Position numbers and translations under genes: made by a program. Of a stretch of 64,000 nt of DNA, positions 3,011 to 63,206 are shown in pieces. The stretch's first letter is position 1. Each line of letters begins with the position of its first letter. Source of the DNA: Minisyncoccota bacterium (GTDB lineage: Bacteria; Patescibacteriota; Minisyncoccia; Phycocordibacterales; UBA9973); assembly GCA_041665925.1 (NCBI GenBank), contig JBAYHW010000001.1:102685-166684 (forward strand), read 5' to 3'. The notes beneath the pieces are model-generated. The model was not told where the DNA came from, made no database searches, and worked only from the letters and a program-made list of their open reading frames with translations.

Positions 3011-4054
3011 ATGTCAAGTAAAAAACCAAAAGAAATAGATAACCCAAGCTCGGAGAAAACCCCAGGAAACGGAGACTCCTTTTTAGATCAGACCCTCCGC
3101 CCTACCCGCTGGGACGAGTACATCGGCCAAAAACACATAAAAGACAACGTTAAAATCCTTCTGCGGGCCGCCGAAGAGCGCGGACACATCCCAGAGCACA
3201 TACTTTTCTATGGGCCACCAGGTCTAGGTAAAACAACACTTGCACATTTAATTGCTAAGGAAACTGGGAAGCAAATGAAAATAACTTCCGGCCCTGCTAT
3301 TGAGAAAGTCGGTGATTTAGCGTCTATCCTCACCAACCTTGCCCCCGGAGATATTCTTTTTATAGATGAAATTCACAGGCTAAATAAAATGGTGGAAGAA
3401 ATTCTCTACCCAGCCATGGAATCTGGAGTTTTAGATATTATTATCGGTAAGGGCCCTAGTGCGCGCACAATTCAACTCGATCTGCCTCCCTTTACACTCA
3501 TCGCCGCTACTACTCGCGTCGCCCTCGTGTCCTCTCCCCTTCGCTCCCGTTTTTCTGGAGGAGTTTTTCGTTTGGAATTTTATAGTAATGAAGAAATTGC
3601 AAAAATTATTGCTCGCTCAAGTAAACTTTTACAAGCAGAATTAGAAAAAGAAGCGTTGGAAGAAATTGCTAAAAGAAGTAGGTTCACCCCCCGTACTGCG
3701 AATTATTTTTTGAAACGTTGCCGAGACTTTGCCCAAGTCAACAAAAGAAGCTTAGATAAAAAAACAATAAAAGAAGCCCTAAACATGCTAGCAATAGACG
3801 ACATCGGTTTAAATTCTTCGGATAGAAAATTCTTAGAAGTTTTAATTGAGAAATTTAACGGCGGGCCGGTGGGACTTAAAACTATCGCCGCGTCAATGTC
3901 CGAAGAAGAAGCCACTGTCGAAGAAGTTGTTGAACCTTACCTCCTCCAGCTCGGCCTCCTAGAACGCTCCCCTCGCGGCCGCGTGGCTACAAACAAAGCT
4001 TACGAACATCTCGGATTTGATATAAAAGAAAATAAGCAAACTAAACTGATTTAA
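3011..4054 (+). CDS. ruvB: Holliday junction branch migration helicase RuvB
   Basis: Walker A GPPGLGKTTLAHLIA, the RuvB sensor motifs and the C-terminal winged-helix region are present over 347 aa. Confidence 0.9.
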   Translation: MSSKKPKEIDNPSSEKTPGNGDSFLDQTLRPTRWDEYIGQKHIKDNVKILLRAAEERGHIPEHILFYGPPGLGKTTLAHLIAKETGKQMKITSGPAIEKVGDLASILTNLAPGDILFIDEIHRLNKMVEEILYPAMESGVLDIIIGKGPSARTIQLDLPPFTLIAATTRVALVSSPLRSRFSGGVFRLEFYSNEEIAKIIARSSKLLQAELEKEALEEIAKRSRFTPRTANYFLKRCRDFAQVNKRSLDKKTIKEALNMLAIDDIGLNSSDRKFLEVLIEKFNGGPVGLKTIAASMSEEEATVEEVVEPYLLQLGLLERSPRGRVATNKAYEHLGFDIKENKQTKLI

Positions 4055-4124
4055 AAAAATACGCAAAAAAAAGAAAGGCTTGGCATTTTCTCTTTAAAAA
4101 AGAAAAAGTGCTAAACCTTTCGTG

Positions 4125-4395
4125 TGATATTCAATCGTTGAATATCAGCCGACCAAAATCCGAAGATTTTGGGTTTGGAGTGAGGGCCCGTTTCCGGGCC
4201 CTCGGGGTTGTTGTGACCACTGTGTAGCCCGATGTCGGATGGCTACTGGGTCGTCTCGGGGTTCACGGCGCCGGCGATCTTCGCGACGGTCTGCGGGTTC
4301 GACTGGGGCGGCGAATGGAAGGAACGATAGGTGAAACTCTTCATGATGTTTCTCCTTTTTCATCGAGCTTATCCCGGTTCCCGGGGGCTCGATAA
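4125..4395 (-). other. GC-rich structured island: stacked hairpins with GAAA and UUCG tetraloops, consistent with a minus-strand structured RNA. It also contains SD-led micro-ORFs.
   Basis: On the minus strand the hairpins are GAGGGCCCG-GAAA-CGGGCCCUC (4182-4203), CCAAAAUC-UUCG-GAUUUUGG (4153-4172), UGAUAUUCAA-CGA-UUGAAUAUCA (4125-4147), and AUCGAGC(CCCGG-GAA-CCGGG...)GCUCGAU (4363-4393). GC content is far above the flanking DNA. Confidence 0.45.
4243..4344 (-). CDS. Micro-ORF (33 aa, MKSFTYRSFHSPPQSNPQTVAKIAGAVNPETTQ) with a strong SD (AAGGAG 7 nt upstream), lying inside the GC-rich island
   Basis: The ATG at 4344 is preceded by aaaaaGGAGaaacatc. The antisense plus-strand frame 4232-4330 encodes a hydrophobic 32-aa peptide, MSDGYWVVSGFTAPAIFATVCGFDWGGEWKER. 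Which strand is translated, if either, is unresolved. Confidence 0.25.
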   Translation of the reverse strand: MKSFTYRSFHSPPQSNPQTVAKIAGAVNPETTQ

Positions 4396-4470
4396 TAGTA
4401 TCGTGCAATATATATATATGAATTGCAAGAGAGGTTATTAACAGGGCTAAAAAGTGGTAGAATCAATAAT

Positions 4471-5007
4471 ATGTCAGGTCATAACAAATGGGCGCAGATA
4501 AAACACAAGAAAGCAATCACGGATGCGAAAAAATCAAAGATTTTTTCTAAGCTGGTGCGTTTTATTTCTGTAGAAGCTAAACTTTCCGGCGGGAAAGATA
4601 GCCCGGGGCTTCGCGCAGCAATTGAAAAAGCAAAAAAAGTAAATATGCCGGCAGACAACATCGAGCGGGCGGTAAAGAAAGCGAGTGAGCCGGGAGCACA
4701 CATGGATGCTATACACTACGAGGCGCACGGTCCTGGTGGAGTCGGCATAATTATTGAAACTCTTACCGACAGCAAGAATAGAACCGTACAAGATATAAAA
4801 CATACACTTACAAAAAATGGTTTCAACTTAGGAGCAATAGGCTCCGTGGTCTGGGCTTTCCAAAAAGAAATAACTCCAGAAGGATTGGTCTGGAGACCGA
4901 CGAACACAGTTCCCCTCTCGGATGAAGATTTAGAACTTTTAGATAAACTCGTAGAAGAGCTTGAAGAAAATGATGATGTGCAAGATGTTTATACTAACGC
5001 AGAATAA
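4471..5007 (+). CDS. yebC: YebC/PmpR family probable transcriptional regulator (short form)
   Basis: The N-terminus MSGHNKWAQIKHKK matches the YebC signature. The ORF track starts 16 codons upstream and the internal ATG at 4471 is preferred. Confidence 0.8.
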   Translation: MSGHNKWAQIKHKKAITDAKKSKIFSKLVRFISVEAKLSGGKDSPGLRAAIEKAKKVNMPADNIERAVKKASEPGAHMDAIHYEAHGPGGVGIIIETLTDSKNRTVQDIKHTLTKNGFNLGAIGSVVWAFQKEITPEGLVWRPTNTVPLSDEDLELLDKLVEELEENDDVQDVYTNAE

Positions 5008-5547: not shown

Positions 5548-5633
5548 TTATCCACATTTTCTATTGCATAGCAATTTATATTTTGATACAAAGTAGACAT
5601 TAGTAGGCAGATTAATTAAAAAATAAAAAAAAT

Positions 5634-5759
5634 ATGGATGAGGAAGAGGAAGTATTGGGAGAAGATAGTTTGAAAATGTCTGATGATGAGCTCGATATGC
5701 CCCCAGAAGGGATGGAAGATGATTTCGGACTAGAAGATCCAGACGATAATTATCACTAA
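5634..5759 (+). CDS. Possible acidic micro-protein (41 aa, MDEEEEVLGEDSLKMSDDELDMPPEGMEDDFGLEDPDDNYH)
   Basis: An ATG-initiated ORF ends 4 nt before a perfect intrinsic terminator. No obvious SD is present. Confidence 0.25.
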   Translation: MDEEEEVLGEDSLKMSDDELDMPPEGMEDDFGLEDPDDNYH

Positions 5760-10954: not shown

Positions 10955-11195
10955 ATATTTGTTTATAACTTATATATATATAAATTATTAGTAATATTAG
11001 TGGTGTTGATAAGTGGATAAGTTTTTATAGTGTATGTTGTAAAGATATTTTTTTGTTATTGTTTTTCTTTTATACTTAATAAAGTTTCTTTACTTTTTAT
11101 AATTTACTTTTCTTAATATCAACTTAACTTCCTTTACTTTCTTATCAACAGTTTATTTTTTTATTTCCACAGACCTTTACTATGGTTATCAACAC
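10955..11195. promoter_or_regulatory. Candidate oriC segment: a very AT-rich dnaA-dnaN intergenic region with DnaA-box-like 9-mers
   Basis: TGTTGATAA lies at 11005-11013 with AGTGGATAA adjacent at 11013-11021. TTATCAACA lies at 11142-11150 and 11186-11194. Long A/T tracts are present. A further box, TGTTGATAA, lies at 12593-12601 upstream of dnaA. Confidence 0.55.
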
Positions 11196-12536
11196 CTATT
11201 TAAACATAATTCTTATTTGTTCTAGTTCTTGTAAAAGTTGTGGGTCGTTTTTTAAATCCATTTTAATTTTTAAACAAGAGTGAATTACTGTCGTATGATC
11301 TTTTCCTCCTAATTTCTGGCCGATTAATGGGTAAGAAACATTAAAATCCTCTCGGAGAAGATACATCACCACTTGTCGTGCCTTTACAATTTCTTTTTTC
11401 CTGGTTTTTTCATATACCGATGCTTCTTCTAGTTTGTAATATTCACTTACAATTTTTACAACATCTTTTATGGCCATATTCTTCTTTGGGCGCATGTTGT
11501 TTTTTAATAGGTTTTTGACTTCCATAAGGTTTAGGGGCTTATTTTTCAAGCGATATTGCATGACAATTAGATTCAAACTACCCTCCAATTCACGGATATT
11601 GCCCTGCACAGCACTAGCCACATACTCCACCAGCTCTGGTTCTAATTCAATATTTAACTCGTTTAATTTCACCTTTAGGATTGCAAGGCGGGATTCATAT
11701 TCTGGTTCGGAAATGTCTACTATCATACCAGCAGCAAAACGAGACTTTAGGCGATCGGCGAGTTCTGGGATGTAATTTGGGTGTTTGTCAGAGGAAAAGA
11801 TAATCTGTTTATTGTTCTCATGGAAGGTGTTGAAGGTGTGGAAGAGTTCTTCTTGTATTTTTTCCATCTTACCAATGAATTGGATGTCATCTATGATTAA
11901 AAGATCATATTTCCTGTATTTTTCTTTGAAAGAATTTGCTTTATTCCCCTGCAAAGAGCTCACAAAATCTGTCGCAAACTTTTCTAGGGTCATATAATGC
12001 ACCTTTTTATTGGGGTATTTTTCTTTTATAGCATTCCCAACAGCTTGGATCATGTGTGTTTTCCCAAGTCCTGTTCCTCCATAAATAAAAAATGGGTTAT
12101 ATTTAGTTCCCGGAGATTCTATTATGGCTTGAGAAGCAGCATAAGCGAGTTCGTTGAATGTTCCCACGATAAATGAATTGAAATGATAGCGGGGGTTTAG
12201 GTTGTCTTCAGGATTGATGTACAAATCCTTCAAAGGTAGCTCTTTTTCGGCGGTTTCGCTGGGGTTTGGGATCTCCTGCTTGGTGTTTTCTATTTTAGTT
12301 ATAGTGTATTCCACCGCTCGCATGTTTTCATAGGCGTCGGCGATGGTTTTGGTGATTAATTTATGATATTTGTTTTGTAACCAGTCACGGACAAACTCAT
12401 TTGGAACACCAATATATATAATTCCCGTATCTTCCCTAACAATAGAGGTATTTTTGAACCAGGTGCTGAAGTTTGCTTTTGATATACCAGTCTCTATTTC
12501 TTCTAGACAGCTTTTCCACAACTGTTTTGTATTCAT
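11196..12536 (-). CDS. dnaA: Chromosomal replication initiator DnaA
   Basis: Has the AAA+ Walker A GTGLGKTH, sensor motifs, and the C-terminal DnaA-box-binding domain over 446 aa. Confidence 0.95.
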   Translation of the reverse strand: MNTKQLWKSCLEEIETGISKANFSTWFKNTSIVREDTGIIYIGVPNEFVRDWLQNKYHKLITKTIADAYENMRAVEYTITKIENTKQEIPNPSETAEKELPLKDLYINPEDNLNPRYHFNSFIVGTFNELAYAASQAIIESPGTKYNPFFIYGGTGLGKTHMIQAVGNAIKEKYPNKKVHYMTLEKFATDFVSSLQGNKANSFKEKYRKYDLLIIDDIQFIGKMEKIQEELFHTFNTFHENNKQIIFSSDKHPNYIPELADRLKSRFAAGMIVDISEPEYESRLAILKVKLNELNIELEPELVEYVASAVQGNIRELEGSLNLIVMQYRLKNKPLNLMEVKNLLKNNMRPKKNMAIKDVVKIVSEYYKLEEASVYEKTRKKEIVKARQVVMYLLREDFNVSYPLIGQKLGGKDHTTVIHSCLKIKMDLKNDPQLLQELEQIRIMFK

Positions 12537-12673
12537 AGTTTCATATTATACTATTTATGGAATGGCCGTCACCTTGAAAAACTTATTAACTGTGTTGATA
12601 AGATGTGCAAAACTTTTTTACAATTGTTTTTCTGGGTTTGATTTATTCTTTAAAATATTATAGACTCTAGTAT

Positions 12674-38947: not shown

Positions 38948-39006
38948 TTGTTAATCGTATACTAAAAAAAACTATTTGCAAAATAAAATCAAATAAAATG
39001 TGAAAG

Positions 39007-39040
39007 GCGGGGCGTCGCGATGTTTTGCGACGCCCCGCCC
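39007..39040 (-). terminator. Intrinsic terminator: a 13-bp perfect GC stem GGCGGGGCGTCGC...GCGACGCCCCGCC followed by a U-run on the minus strand
   Basis: Read directly. It lies immediately 3' of the GC-rich micro-ORF on the minus strand. Confidence 0.75.
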
Positions 39041-39050
39041 GTGTGGCGAT

Positions 39051-39188
39051 CTACAACCAGCCCATTCTAATTGCGACCGACACTGCGGCCGCTACCAGAC
39101 ACAGGCCGGTGTAGAACTGGGCGTCGTTTGGAGGACCTACCAAGTCCTCCTTCAGCGCGGCCCAGTAGGCCCGTAGAATTTGTTTCAT
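39051..39188 (-). CDS. GC-rich small membrane peptide (45 aa, MKQILRAYWAALKEDLVGPPNDAQFYTGLCLVAAAVSVAIRMGWL), a self-contained expression unit
   Basis: It has a sigma70-like promoter (TTGACT, 16-nt spacer, TAGAAT) with an overlapping 7-bp inverted repeat (TACACTT/AAGTGTA), an SD GAGGAGG 5 nt before the ATG, a C-terminal TM helix, and a strong terminator. GC content and codon usage are unlike the host genes. Confidence 0.5.
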   Translation of the reverse strand: MKQILRAYWAALKEDLVGPPNDAQFYTGLCLVAAAVSVAIRMGWL

Positions 39189-39258
39189 GGGAACCTCCTC
39201 GCTAAAAATTCTACATACAAATACACTTTAGTCAAGTGTATTAAAAGTTTATCTTCTG

Positions 39259-57957: not shown

Positions 57958-59022
57958 TTACTTTAATTTTTCAATTTGTTCCCAGGACATGTTTTTTCTA
58001 CCGAAATGTCCATAGGTAGCTGTCTTGCGGAAGATAGGCTGGCGAAGACCTAGACTTTTTATTATTGAAAGTGGCTTAAAATCAAAATTCTTCCTTACTA
58101 TTTCTGATAAATCTTCTCCTTTTTCGTTCACGGCTTCTATCATAAGCGGTTCAGCCATACCTATGGCGTAGGCGACAGACACTAGAGCTTCCTTGCCATA
58201 ACCATTTGCAACCAGATTCTTAGCAACGAAGCGGGCCATATATGCTCCCGAGCGATCTACCTTTGTAGAATCCTTCCCAGAGAAACATCCTCCACCATGG
58301 GAAATGAGTCCTCCGTATGAATCTACCATTATTTTGCGTCCAGTAAGGCCAGTGTCGGCTTCGAAACCGCCCTGAATGAATTGCCCCGTTGGGTTAATCA
58401 ATATGTTGGTGGTCTTTTTTTCTTCTTCGGATAAAAATGGAAAAATTATTTTTTCAGTAATTTCTTTTCTTATTTCCTCAATCGAAACATCTGGAGCATG
58501 CTGCGCACTCACCAAAACAGTTTTTAATTTACCATTATCGTAGGTCACCTGAGTTTTACCATCTGGTTTGAGCCATTTTATTTCTTTCCCCTTGCGAGCC
58601 CTCTCTAGTCTTTTTGCAAGTCTGTGTACTAGTACTATTCCTTTTGGTAAAAATTTCTCAGTTTCATTTGTGGCGAAGCCATACATAATACCCTGATCTC
58701 CAGCGCCTCCAGTGTCTACACCCATAGCTATGTCTGGGGATTGAGTCACAACATGAGCAGATATTTGTAGTTCATCATCGTAGCCTATTTCTTTATAAAC
58801 CGTGCGAGCAATTTTAACATAGTCTACTGTTCCCTTAGATGTTACTTCTCCACCAATTACCAGCTTGCCATGTCCGCCGAAAGTTTCTACAGCAACTCGG
58901 CTCATAGGGTCTTGCTCTAAATATGCATCTAAAATGGCATCTGAGATTTGATCACAGATTTTATCTGGATGACCGGACGTAACGCTCTCCACTGTATACG
59001 TATCATTGTGTTTATAGAACAT
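57958..59022 (-). CDS. metK: S-adenosylmethionine synthetase
   Basis: ESVTSGHPDKICDQISDAILD, GGGAFSGKD and the rest of the MetK signature are present. The ATG at 59022 is preferred because the ORF-track TTG extension overlaps the riboswitch terminator. Confidence 0.9.
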   Translation of the reverse strand: MFYKHNDTYTVESVTSGHPDKICDQISDAILDAYLEQDPMSRVAVETFGGHGKLVIGGEVTSKGTVDYVKIARTVYKEIGYDDELQISAHVVTQSPDIAMGVDTGGAGDQGIMYGFATNETEKFLPKGIVLVHRLAKRLERARKGKEIKWLKPDGKTQVTYDNGKLKTVLVSAQHAPDVSIEEIRKEITEKIIFPFLSEEEKKTTNILINPTGQFIQGGFEADTGLTGRKIMVDSYGGLISHGGGCFSGKDSTKVDRSGAYMARFVAKNLVANGYGKEALVSVAYAIGMAEPLMIEAVNEKGEDLSEIVRKNFDFKPLSIIKSLGLRQPIFRKTATYGHFGRKNMSWEQIEKLK

Positions 59023-59035
59023 GTGTTTTTTAAAA

Positions 59036-59200
59036 TAAAAAATCCTCAAGTAATGAGGAAAGATTTTTATGTGGACTAGACATACTTATCTTTCCCGATA
59101 TTGTTTTCACAACATCTGGTTGGATTTAGCACCTTTCTTTTAGGTTGCTGGGCGGGTCATTGAGCCAATTCTCTCGTCGCCACTCTCGATATATTTAGTT
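59036..59200 (-). ncRNA. SAM-I (S-box) riboswitch with a terminator expression platform, in the metK leader
   Basis: The minus-strand RNA reads AUAUCGAGAGUGGCGACGAGAGAAUUGGCUCAAUGACCCGCCCAGCAACC...AGGUGCUAAAUCCAACCAG...AUCGGGAAAGAUAAG. The S-box hallmarks UC.AGAG.GG, AUGA, GCAACC, GGUGCUAAAUCC and GAUAAG are all present. A terminator hairpin UCCUCA-UUACU-UGAGGA with a U-run follows, and its 5' arm is complementary to GGAAAG, which would form an antiterminator. Confidence 0.7.
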
Positions 59201-61631: not shown

Positions 61632-63206
61632 ATGAGCTTTGCTAAAGTATATTCAGCTCAAGTGAATCTACTGTCTGGAGCTATTGTAACCATTGAAGTG
61701 GACCTCTCTAGGGGGTTACACACTTTTAGTGTAGTGGGCCTACCGGACAAAGCCGTAGACGAATCTAAAGACCGAGTCAGTGGAGCTATTAAAAATTCCG
61801 GATTTAAATCTCCGAAAGCCCAGAATCAAAAAATTATTGTTTCACTTTCCCCAGCGGATTTGAAGAAAGAAGGGCCGTTTTTTGATTTGGCCATAGCCAT
61901 TGCTTATCTTAAATCTACTGGGGATATAAAGTTTGATTCCGAGAAGAAAATTTTCTTAGGGGAGCTCGGGCTGGATGGAACCTTGCGAGCCGTTCGGGGC
62001 GCATTGCCACTTGCCCAAGAAGCTAAAAGGCGTGGTTTCGAAGAAATATATTTACCGAAAGAAAATGCCGTAGAGGCAGCATTAGTGGAAGGAATTAAAA
62101 TTTTTGGAGCAGGGAGCTTGAATGAAGTTGTGGAGCACATAGCCCCGACACCTAAAGGGGTCGGGGTCCCGACATCGGATAAAGTCCGAGCGTCGGGAAC
62201 GAAGATTCCAGTTCAACCACAAACTAAGGTAAACTATAAAAAAGAACACAAAGGAGCGGATTTCTCTGATATTCGCGGACAAGAGGGAGCCAAAAGGGGT
62301 CTCGAAATTGCCGCAGCCGGCGGGCACAACATAGCCATGTATGGCCCGCCGGGCACAGGGAAAACGATGCTCGCGCGAGCGTTTTCGGAGCTATTGCCCG
62401 AGCTAAGCCTAGAAGAAGTGCTGGAGCTCACGGGGATACACTCCGTGGCGGGAAGCACGCAAGGAGAGCTCGTGTGCTTCCCGCCTTTTCGCGCTCCGCA
62501 CCACACTGCTTCTTATGTATCAATTATCGGTGGAGGGACTTTCCCAAAACCCGGCGAAGTCACCCTCGCACACCGTGGAGTATTGTTCTTGGATGAATTT
62601 CCAGAATTTGAAAAGAGAGTTATAGAATCTCTACGTCAGCCACTCGAAGACAATATCGTCTCAATCTCACGGGCGAGAGGCACCGCTGTTTTTCCTTCCA
62701 ATTTTATTCTCGTCGCAGCGATGAATCCTTGCCCGTGCGGAAATGCTGGTAACAAACAAAAAGCCTGCATTTGCAAACCAGGAGATTTAGATAGATACAA
62801 AAGAAAATTGTCTGGCCCAATCGTGGATCGTATTGATCTTTGGGTATCTGTCGGCAATGTGGATTACAAAAAACTTGGAGACGTCGGAAGCGGGGAGAGA
62901 AGTGAAAATATAAAAGAAAGAGTGATCAAAGCGCGAGCCAAGCAAAGAGAAAGATTTCAAAAATTTGGAAAGAAAATTACTTCCAATAGTGAAATGAATG
63001 TGAAAGATTTAGAAAACATGGTGAGGCTCGCGCCCGAAGTTCGCGATCTCTTGGACAGGAGCGCAGAGAACCTAAGTCTGTCTGCTCGTGCTTATCACCG
63101 AGTCATAAAAATCGCCCGTACTATCGCGGACCTCGAAAATTCAGAAAATGTGGAAGCGAATCATATACTGGAAGCCATACAATACAGACCAAAGGTGAAT
63201 TCGTAA
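61632..63206 (+). CDS. comM: Mg-chelatase-like AAA+ ATPase YifB/ComM
   Basis: An N-terminal Lon-protease-like domain, Walker A GPPGTGKTM, and the C-terminal ChlI-like domain over 524 aa. Confidence 0.85.
   Translation: MSFAKVYSAQVNLLSGAIVTIEVDLSRGLHTFSVVGLPDKAVDESKDRVSGAIKNSGFKSPKAQNQKIIVSLSPADLKKEGPFFDLAIAIAYLKSTGDIKFDSEKKIFLGELGLDGTLRAVRGALPLAQEAKRRGFEEIYLPKENAVEAALVEGIKIFGAGSLNEVVEHIAPTPKGVGVPTSDKVRASGTKIPVQPQTKVNYKKEHKGADFSDIRGQEGAKRGLEIAAAGGHNIAMYGPPGTGKTMLARAFSELLPELSLEEVLELTGIHSVAGSTQGELVCFPPFRAPHHTASYVSIIGGGTFPKPGEVTLAHRGVLFLDEFPEFEKRVIESLRQPLEDNIVSISRARGTAVFPSNFILVAAMNPCPCGNAGNKQKACICKPGDLDRYKRKLSGPIVDRIDLWVSVGNVDYKKLGDVGSGERSENIKERVIKARAKQRERFQKFGKKITSNSEMNVKDLENMVRLAPEVRDLLDRSAENLSLSARAYHRVIKIARTIADLENSENVEANHILEAIQYRPKVNS

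Follow-up and report, generated by a model that had tools for sequence, protein, structure and literature searches.

The GC-rich island between ruvB and yebC of a Candidatus Nomurabacteria genome is best read as a small mRNA of a variable micro-ORF cassette family

What is encoded by the most GC-rich stretch of a 64 kb region of Candidatus Nomurabacteria DNA (Paceibacterota, Candidate Phyla Radiation (CPR)), which lies between ruvB and yebC? The window, that is, the whole 64,000-nucleotide stretch analysed here, was originally predicted to carry at this place a structured small RNA (sRNA), a type I toxin/antisense pair or a horizontally acquired RNA element. Comparison with the ruvB neighbourhoods of 80 related species, in which labels of the type L001 designate single loci, points to another answer. 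The island would be a small translated mRNA with structured untranslated regions (UTRs), and would belong to an undescribed family of Nomurabacteria cassettes, each built around a very short open reading frame (micro-ORF), that is locus-specific, fast-evolving, compositionally anomalous and possibly phase-variable. This answer is considered probable, though by no means secure.

The island and the unit it carries

The island, taken as the stretch above 0.56 GC, spans positions 4121-4409 and is the top GC stretch of the whole window. The claim of a GC-rich island is borne out by the 150-nt GC profile, which peaks at 0.667 (start at 4177), about 4.5 standard deviations above the window mean of 0.381 (standard deviation 0.064). 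The ruvB stop codon lies at 4054, and the features of the ruvB-yebC interval, together with its two flanking genes, are the following (ORF, open reading frame; SD, Shine-Dalgarno sequence; MFE, minimum free energy).

3011-4054, plus strand: RuvB, from precomputed Pfam matches
4064-4120, minus strand: intrinsic terminator of the cassette, hairpin AAAGGUUUAGCACUUUUUCUUU...AAAGAGAAAAUGCCAAGCCUUU then U8, in the MFE and centroid structures
4126-4146, minus strand: AU-rich hairpin GAUAUUCAA-CGA-UUGAAUAUC of the 3' UTR, from fold prediction
4153-4172, minus strand: UUCG-capped hairpin CCAAAAUC-UUCG-GAUUUUGG, from fold prediction and conserved in the subtype
4182-4203, minus strand: GAAA-capped 9-bp GC hairpin GAGGGCCCG-GAAA-CGGGCCCUC, from fold prediction
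4225-4247, minus strand: stop-codon hairpin GUAGCC-(11 nt)-GGCUAC spanning the UAG at 4245-4243, in the centroid and MFE structures
4344-4243, minus strand: 33-codon ORF plus TAG stop, MKSFTYRSFHSPPQSNPQTVAKIAGAVNPETTQ, from the SD, ATG-AAG and open frame
4352-4357, minus strand: SD AAGGAG, 7 nt before the ATG, read in the sequence
4362-4393, minus strand: nested hairpin AUCGAGC-[CCCGG-GAA-CCGGG]-AUAA-GCUCGAU directly 5' of the SD, from fold prediction
4395-4428, minus strand: putative cassette promoter, with TTGCAA (4428-4423), (AT)6/(TA)6 of 12 nt (4408-4419) and a -10-like GATACT/TACTAT (4402-4395), from alignment with relatives
4435-4463, plus strand: putative new promoter-like region for yebC, with TTATTAACA (4435-4443) and an extended -10, TGgTAGAAT (4455-4463)
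4471-5007, plus strand: YebC, from precomputed Pfam matches

The GAAA, UUCG, AU and nested hairpins of the minus strand are all present exactly as originally predicted, and the strong SD and the 33-aa ORF were likewise confirmed in the sequence.

A cassette family at one locus

Among the 37 relatives' loci in which both genes could be mapped, the gap between ruvB and yebC measures 1-36 nt in 25 and exceeds 100 nt in 11. Since the two genes abut in most of these loci, the island is to be regarded as an insertion. The earlier description of it as an inserted element also agrees with the state of close relatives: among those with a YebC identity of 90% or more, L177-L180 and L183 are without the island, and L175/L176 and L181/L182 carry different cassettes. 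Direct reading of the loci and a scan for GC islands revealed, in about 30 of the 80, a GC-rich unit of 170-400 nt at the ruvB-yebC, yebC-ruvC or ruvB-ruvC junction. The cassette strand is always opposite to ruvB, in convergent orientation, and the order of the parts is constant: promoter, leader, SD with ATG-AAR, micro-ORF, perfect GC hairpin and long AU-rich terminator. The subtype to which the window belongs is shared with L011, L073, L002 and L016 and is characterized by an upstream block, CTGTTAATAAC..CTTGCAATTC.(TA)n.TTGCAC, then UAUCGAG...CUCGAU, as well as by the UUCG hairpin.

A profile built from the promoter and leader of the canonical cassettes matches almost only the ruvB locus (90 loci) and has no match in the 64 kb window, which also holds no second copy of the island. 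For these two reasons the family is seen as locus-specific rather than as a dispersed repeat. Neither a transposase or integrase adjoining the island nor terminal inverted repeats around it were found. A dispersed mobile element, be it a miniature inverted-repeat transposable element (MITE), a repetitive extragenic palindrome (REP), an IS200/605-derived palindrome-associated transposable element (PATE) or an integron cassette, was rejected on the single copy in 64 kb and the lack of an adjoining transposase or integrase.

Codon periodicity of the micro-ORF

The centre of the island behaves as a coding sequence. GC contents at the first, second and third codon positions (GC1, GC2 and GC3) of the 33-codon frame are 0.50, 0.53 and 0.88, and its UTRs have no periodicity; across the 51 long coding sequences (CDS) of the window, GC3 is 0.33 +/- 0.046 with a maximum of 0.43. 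In the same line, it is the SD-led frame that has the highest GC3 in 19 of 21 cassettes; the values typically lie at 0.72-0.96, GC1 and GC2 being near 0.5, and are independent of the host GC3 (0.30-0.64 for ruvB in the same loci). Third positions in the cassettes consist of 48% C, 31% G, 13% T and 8% A. Folding does not account for this composition, because the ORF segments fold no better than their dinucleotide shuffles, with z = +0.24 for the window and a mean z of 0.04 over 20 cassettes. Structure is thus confined to the UTRs, while the island centre is a codon-periodic ORF, and the structured sRNA of the original prediction does not stand as the main reading.

At the level of the peptide, most related cassettes again have an SD and then ATG-AAR, and the motif [HE]-S-P-[PL]-[QR]-[SA] is common to the window, L011, L175/L176 and L063. 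The codons of this shared motif differ synonymously (Ser TCG/TCA/AGC; Pro CCG/CCC/CCT; Gln CAG/CAA). When pairwise peptide similarity was compared over six frames, the sense frame gave the most pairs with z>2.5, namely 17 against 7-12 in the others. The SD-led peptide itself is hydrophilic, with a grand average of hydropathy (GRAVY) of -0.75.

Regarding the origin of the GC3 excess, several candidate causes were tried and rejected. A preference of highly expressed genes is at odds with metK, pnp and ahcY, whose GC3 is 0.34-0.37; adenine-specific mutagenesis of the type known from diversity-generating retroelements does not match third positions that are C/G-rich and not merely A-poor; and RNA structure fails in the shuffle test of the ORF segments. 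Matches obtained with tblastx between cassettes, being mostly out-of-frame and of low complexity, were discarded as compositional. Three ideas are retained as candidates, namely gene conversion biased towards GC where conserved flanks surround a recombination hot spot, selection favouring an mRNA that resists RNases, and import from an unsampled GC-rich gene pool.

Database searches brought no relative of the product. The 33-, 32-, 45- and 87-aa translations and the larger cassette proteins have no match in Pfam or NCBIfam. Five matches resulted from exhaustive HMMER searching with the 33-aa peptide; the two that were read are long proteins made of tandem repeats, in which 7-8 repeats add up to the score, and the matches were judged to reflect repeat inflation and not homology. 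A profile of five cassette peptides gave a single candidate match, a 48-aa protein. Finally, the public annotation places over 4145-4363 of the minus strand a 72-aa ORF in another frame, which crosses the 3' hairpins and found only itself in a library of 5.8 × 10^9 proteins; this gene call is probably a mis-call arising from stop-poor GC-rich sequence.

Promoters and the (TA)n tract

The putative promoter of the window cassette has better-formed counterparts in relatives, which carry TTGACA-N16-TATCAT or CATTAT, frequently with a (TA)n tract inside the spacer; sigma-70-type promoters were detected by scan in L059 and L063, and the spacer between the -35 and -10 hexamers measures 16 nt in L050, L059 and L063. 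Tracts of (TA)>=5 number two in the window, one in the cassette promoter and the other in the dnaN-dnaA spacer. Over the 524 kb of the relatives' loci, seven of the eight such tracts fall in the cassette zone beside ruvB, and those that were read sit in the cassette promoter. The (TA)n tract varies from 11 to 16 nt between species, and many cassettes are without a pure repeat. By analogy with contingency loci, slippage of this tract in the promoter spacer may switch cassette expression. As a separate observation, a 9-nt unit, CAGGATCTC, is repeated in tandem about seven times within the cassette ORF of L070 (about 4052-4168, minus strand) and translated as RIS repeats, which would represent a further slippage-prone feature of the family.

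On the plus strand, the insertion appears to have created the promoter-like region of yebC. More precisely, TTATTAACA is a degenerate copy of the TTATCCACA box, which stands at the equivalent place in other cassettes, and the promoter-like region is conserved in L016 and L002. The perfect TTATCCACA, a DnaA-box-like 9-mer, is also found just after ruvC, at 5548-5556 of the window (plus strand) and in about 70 of the 80 related loci. There, a -35-like hexamer follows it 7 nt downstream, and beyond this hexamer comes a conserved acidic ORF of 41-43 aa (5634-5759 in the window, plus strand, MDEEEEVLGEDSLKMSDDELDMPPEGMEDDFGLEDPDDNYH). A second copy of TTATCCACA precedes the cassette promoter in many loci. 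This box may act as a promoter-proximal activator site or as a DnaA site.

Proposed mechanism

From these elements, the island can be pictured as a self-contained monocistronic minus-strand unit between otherwise tightly linked ruvB and yebC. Transcription would start near 4390-4400, from a promoter containing the 12-nt (TA)n tract, and would give an RNA with a 5' stem-loop and a strong SD, encoding a 33-aa hydrophilic peptide whose frame is backed by the codon periodicity. The RNA would end with a 3' stack of stop-codon, GAAA, UUCG and AU hairpins followed by the U8 terminator; most likely, these 3' hairpins would shield the short mRNA against 3' exonucleases and halt the convergent transcription of ruvB. 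The insertion would also provide yebC with a new promoter. At the scale of the family, conserved regulatory flanks would enclose a micro-ORF that is hypervariable and sometimes lost, always with GC-ending codons foreign to the host, and the most likely role of the product is that of an accessory, rapidly diversifying micro-protein.

A further and more tentative proposal, which we consider possible without leaning towards it, is that of a clade-wide, single-locus "micro-ORF contingency cassette" in the CPR. Such a cassette would join conserved native signals, namely a promoter whose (TA)n tract is prone to slippage, a structured leader, stabilising GNRA/UUCG hairpins and a terminator, to a hypervariable peptide of 20-50 aa, the GC-ending codons of which would be actively kept against the AT bias by GC-biased gene conversion at a hot spot of recombination near ruvB/ruvC or by selection on the mRNA. 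It would amount to a kind of fast-evolving small-protein locus not described before in episymbiotic bacteria.

Small proteins and small mRNAs are almost invisible in the annotation of CPR/Patescibacteria. If the translated-cassette reading is true, dozens of Nomurabacteria species would keep an expression slot at one junction for a rapidly changing micro-protein, which would bear on the roles of micro-proteins in obligate episymbionts. The locus would also offer a test case for a local base composition decoupled from the genome-wide mutational bias, with biased gene conversion opposed to selection. More generally, it would illustrate that GC-rich islands in AT-rich genomes, commonly read as genes of non-coding RNAs, can be coding.

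Nevertheless, a series of observations weighs against a translated product. The ORF varies in length from 6 to 54 aa across the cassettes, and it is truncated or missing while its flanks are intact in L046 (6 aa), L048 (9 aa), L076 (12 aa) and L023/L037 (none); a premature stop distinguishes the two members of the related pair L175/L181. Peptide conservation is weak, with p values of about 0.0005-0.03 for individual pairs, and the peptide match between the window and L011 rests on identical DNA. Besides, gene calls almost never include the cassette peptides, and protein libraries of 5.8 × 10^9 and 1.8 × 10^9 entries yielded no homologue. The window copy is in addition atypical: it is without the canonical leader motif, its promoter spacer of 20-22 nt (depending on the -10 hexamer chosen) is longer than optimal, and a consensus scan called no promoter at this cassette. 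Finally, the GC3 excess of the ORF is without a supported cause, and no donor was found.

Untranslated regions and the possibility of a functional RNA

These observations lend weight to the alternative that survives best, in which the RNA itself would be the functional product, either as a regulatory or dual-function RNA or as an sRNA derived from the 3' UTR and composed of the GC hairpin, the UUCG hairpin and the terminator, with translation being incidental or only stabilising. This alternative is judged unlikely, yet it has to be weighed seriously. The minus-strand fold of 361 nt has a z score of -7.2, none of 100 dinucleotide shuffles folding as well, and the 3' UTR alone reaches z = -7.75, with none of 200 shuffles as good. 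The most conserved element of the window's cassette subtype is the UUCG hairpin, which the window shares with L011 and L073 at 100% identity, the rest of the L011 and L073 cassettes being unalignable. It shows a compensatory U-A to C-G change in L016 and a shortened covarying stem, CCUAAUC/GAUUAGG, in L002. A perfect GC hairpin of different sequence occupies the matching place after the ORF in nearly all related cassettes, and the outer arm of the nested hairpin, UAUCGAG...CUCGAU, is conserved in L011 and L073. The AU hairpin at 4126-4146 is not conserved among relatives.

In addition, GNRA or UNCG loops cap 11 of the 19 perfect-stem tetraloop hairpins counted on the cassette strand of the 3' UTRs and 2 of 19 on the opposite strand, with about 5% expected by chance; 5 of the 11 are the orthologous UUCG hairpin. 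Since this enrichment is restricted to the cassette strand, the minus strand is taken as the functional one, as had been claimed, and the bias supports a function at the RNA level; most simply, this would be that of 3' stabilisers and termination signals belonging to a short mRNA, and of a barrier against convergent ruvB transcription. The UTR elements are better conserved than the ORF, and in L023, L037, L046, L048 and L076, where the ORF is degenerate or absent, promoter, leader, hairpin and terminator are kept. Against a functional RNA, the strong GC3 periodicity that 19 of 21 cassettes show in one frame, and the SD and ATG-AAR that accompany it, are hard to explain without selection linked to translation; the ORF segment has no excess structure; no Rfam family matches; and neither a target nor a seed was identified.

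Another argument for a function of the RNA comes from the leader of the canonical cassettes, with its conserved ACAGYUCUUUGAC and covarying P1 stem. In these leaders, ACAGYUCUUUGAC(G) stands at the predicted 5' end and can form a stem with GRRCUGU, which immediately precedes the SD. The resulting P1 stem covaries (CAGCUC/GAGCUG versus CAGUUC/GAACUG) and encloses a variable hairpin and a conserved CUAGAUG. Examples, read in the sequence and all on the minus strand, are:

L059, 4382-4446, minus strand: canonical leader
L050, 4255-4326, minus strand: canonical leader
L048, 4310-4373, minus strand: canonical leader
L014, 4243-4303, minus strand: canonical leader

The CUCUUU segment could also pair with the SD, and the canonical leader is a candidate for an undescribed cis-regulatory leader, without Rfam match.

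As for the individual hairpins of the window, several may serve the ends of the transcripts. The terminator hairpin proper covers 4074-4120 and its U8 corresponds to the plus-strand A-run at 4065-4072; owing to its AU-rich stem, it was missed by a simple terminator scan. Terminators of like build, and partly of the same sequence, are present in the cassettes of relatives such as L073, L049, L050 and L066, and the hairpin is missing where ruvB and yebC abut. Facing the ruvB stop at 4054, this terminator probably also ends ruvB transcripts. On the plus strand, 4181-4204 was flagged as terminator-like by the scan, so that the GAAA hairpin would read on this strand as a terminator-like site for ruvB read-through. 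The nested repeat at 4362-4393 could be either a 5'-UTR stem-loop or, if transcription starts inside it, a DNA operator.

Insertion at the junction and the possibility of a remnant

Less likely again is a second alternative, according to which the island would have no function and would be what is left of a decaying gene, acquired or formerly longer, at an insertion hot spot, a candidate ancestor being a secreted protein like that encoded by the 224-aa ORF of L016. Its appeal comes from the irregular distribution of the island, which is present in some close relatives and absent from others, and from the unrelated insertions held by the same junction (a GIY-YIG ORF and secreted ORFans in L016/L017, AT-rich genes in L006, L018 and L025). 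Moreover, the ORF of L073 resembles an isolated signal peptide, the promoter spacing of the window is non-canonical, and all products are ORFans. However, an unconstrained sequence should lose a GC3 of 0.88 under AT bias, whereas this feature is kept across lineages whose host GC3 ranges from 0.30 to 0.64; the SD, the ATG and the perfect 8-9-bp hairpins with optimal tetraloops are intact; and the 33-aa peptide has no detectable similarity to the L016 protein. An origin of the 33-aa ORF by internal deletion of an L016-type secreted protein was also tried, and rejected for lack of an alignment.

The insertions themselves deserve a description. In two close relatives, L016 (4026-6500) and L017 (4048-5057), the ruvB-yebC gap contains, right after ruvB, a 92-aa ORF that we take, from its sequence alone, to be GIY-YIG-like, as well as GC3-rich ORFan genes for proteins of 175-224 aa with signal peptides. 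The 224-aa ORF of L016 carries the same 3' UTR, with GC hairpin and UUCG hairpin, as the window cassette, and its protein found only itself among 5.8 × 10^9 proteins. AT-rich small genes occupy the same junction in L006, L018 and L025. The ruvB-yebC junction is thus an insertion hot spot.

With regard to the idea of a horizontally acquired RNA element, it was not upheld: the regulatory parts that flank the island are native to Nomurabacteria and specific to the locus, and no donor was found for the GC-rich part. Searches of the island with BLASTN returned no match in phages, and in plasmids only chance-level matches of 25-45 nt in GC-rich taxa. The 20-mer of the UUCG hairpin had 93 matches in metagenomes, nearly all unrelated and mostly within one enterobacterial-type coding sequence; the one relevant match, L133, is a duplicate of L073. 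The same 20-mer had no match in a viral scan.

The antisense ORF and known RNA families

The hydrophobic 32-aa ORF that had been noticed on the plus strand, in the antisense frame whose wobble positions coincide with those of the sense frame, does exist:

4232-4330, plus strand: antisense 32-aa ORF, MSDGYWVVSGFTAPAIFATVCGFDWGGEWKER, in the wobble-coincident frame and without SD

It contains a 15-residue window of hydropathy 1.76 and wholly overlaps the structured minus-strand RNA, which are the features that suggested a type I toxin-antitoxin pair, with a plus-strand 32-aa toxin and a minus-strand RNA antitoxin, or the reverse. Such a pair is very improbable. The plus-strand ORF has neither an SD nor a promoter-like site, and the wobble-coincident antisense frame tends to stay open in any GC3-rich coding sequence, so that its openness is expected anyway. 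Among the antisense ORFs of 20 related cassettes, frame, length and hydropathy all vary, and among the two longest ones listed per cassette an SD precedes a single ORF of 24 aa and none of the longest. Furthermore, the SD-led peptide is hydrophilic and no Pfam or NCBIfam family matches. The plus-strand ORF is accordingly judged not to be a gene but to arise as a by-product from the GC3 richness of the sense ORF, and the toxin/antisense claim is abandoned.

The earlier remark that no housekeeping RNA could be matched holds after an Rfam scan. At the gathering threshold, Rfam 15 recognised in the whole window only four tRNAs and a SAM (S-adenosylmethionine) riboswitch, all outside the island; at E<=10 over 3950-4550, the best E value was >=0.058, far below threshold, with matches mostly in the AT-rich terminator; and at E<=1, no match was obtained at the equivalent places of 23 related loci. 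Although a GC-rich island in an AT-rich genome is the classical sign of a structured RNA and several stable hairpins occur in this one, a divergent known housekeeping or mobile RNA (tmRNA, RNase P, the signal recognition particle RNA, 6S, a riboswitch, an IS200/605 end or a MITE) is hardly tenable, given these Rfam results, the absence of any indication of ARAGORN-type RNAs, the single copy in 64 kb of a family confined to one locus without terminal inverted repeats, and a UUCG 20-mer that found only unrelated metagenome sequences besides the L073 duplicate.

Comparison with known systems

Among known systems, close in build are the small mRNAs or dual-function sRNAs exemplified by SgrS/SgrT, RNAIII/hld and SR1/SR1P. 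Like them, the cassette corresponds to a short independent RNA of a few hundred nt with a strong SD, an ORF of 20-50 codons, stable hairpins and an intrinsic terminator, and its UTR parts are conserved as well as the ORF or better. Unlike them, its ORF is hypervariable, GC3-rich in an AT-rich host and tied to the ruvB/yebC/ruvC junction, and there is no sequence or Rfam similarity. A second parallel is offered by contingency loci whose promoter spacer contains a dinucleotide repeat, such as the (TA)n of hifA/hifB in Haemophilus influenzae. The cassette promoter similarly has (TA)5.5-8 separating a -35-like from a -10-like hexamer and adjoins a divergent promoter back to back, and the product is hypervariable between lineages. 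However, the cassette products are mostly tiny, cytoplasmic-looking peptides and not surface structures, many cassettes are without a pure repeat, and the repeat lengths compared here are those between species alone.

Type I toxin-antitoxin systems, of which hok/sok, tisB/istR-1 and fst are examples, share with the cassette a small ORF, fully overlapping potential sense and antisense transcripts, heavy structure and an intergenic position beside DNA-repair genes. They differ from it in that the SD-led peptide of the cassette is hydrophilic, the antisense ORF lacks an SD and conservation, and a second promoter is not evident. The stacked perfect GC hairpins with GNRA/UUCG loops after the stop, and the U-tract terminator facing ruvB, recall the REP-like 3'-UTR stabilisers and bidirectional terminators, whereas the cassette elements are single-copy, locus-specific and part of an inserted gene unit rather than simply the end of ruvB. 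Finally, a short ORF followed at once by hairpins and a terminator is the arrangement of leader-peptide attenuators. Here, no gene lies downstream on the same strand, where only the antisense of the ruvB 3' end follows, no antiterminator pairing was found in the cassette and there is no regulatory run of amino acids. A transcription attenuator with a leader peptide was rejected on the first of these points.

Other sites in the window

A second GC-rich small-gene island is located at 39003-39205 on the minus strand, beside three tRNA genes, with a 150-nt GC content of up to 0.64. It comprises a promoter-like TTGACT-N16-TAGAAT, the SD GAGGAGG and a 45-aa ORF at 39188-39051 (minus strand, MKQILRAYWAALKEDLVGPPNDAQFYTGLCLVAAAVSVAIRMGWL), with a hydrophobic C-terminal half, GC1/2/3 of 0.61/0.45/0.68 and no match in Pfam or NCBIfam, followed by a perfect GC-rich terminator, GGGCGGGGCGUCGC..GCGACGCCCCGCC. 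By its appearance, this ORF would resemble a small membrane protein or a type I toxin more than the 33-aa ORF does. A third GC-rich stretch, at 62238-62597, lies inside a 524-aa CDS (61632-63206), presumably a ComM/Mg-chelatase-type ATPase lookalike by sequence recognition; its GC richness reflects the amino-acid composition, and it is not an island of the same kind.

The SAM riboswitch mentioned above, of the SAM-I class, is at 59083-59195 on the minus strand, upstream of a metK-like CDS (57958-59022), an ordinary arrangement, and scores 50.8 bits, above the gathering score. At 10971-11194 and 12512-12601, the other (TA)6 tract of the window falls in the dnaN-dnaA spacer, together with several DnaA boxes with one mismatch, and more DnaA boxes flank the dnaA start. 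The dnaN-dnaA region is a likely origin of replication (oriC), about 7-8 kb from the GC-rich island.

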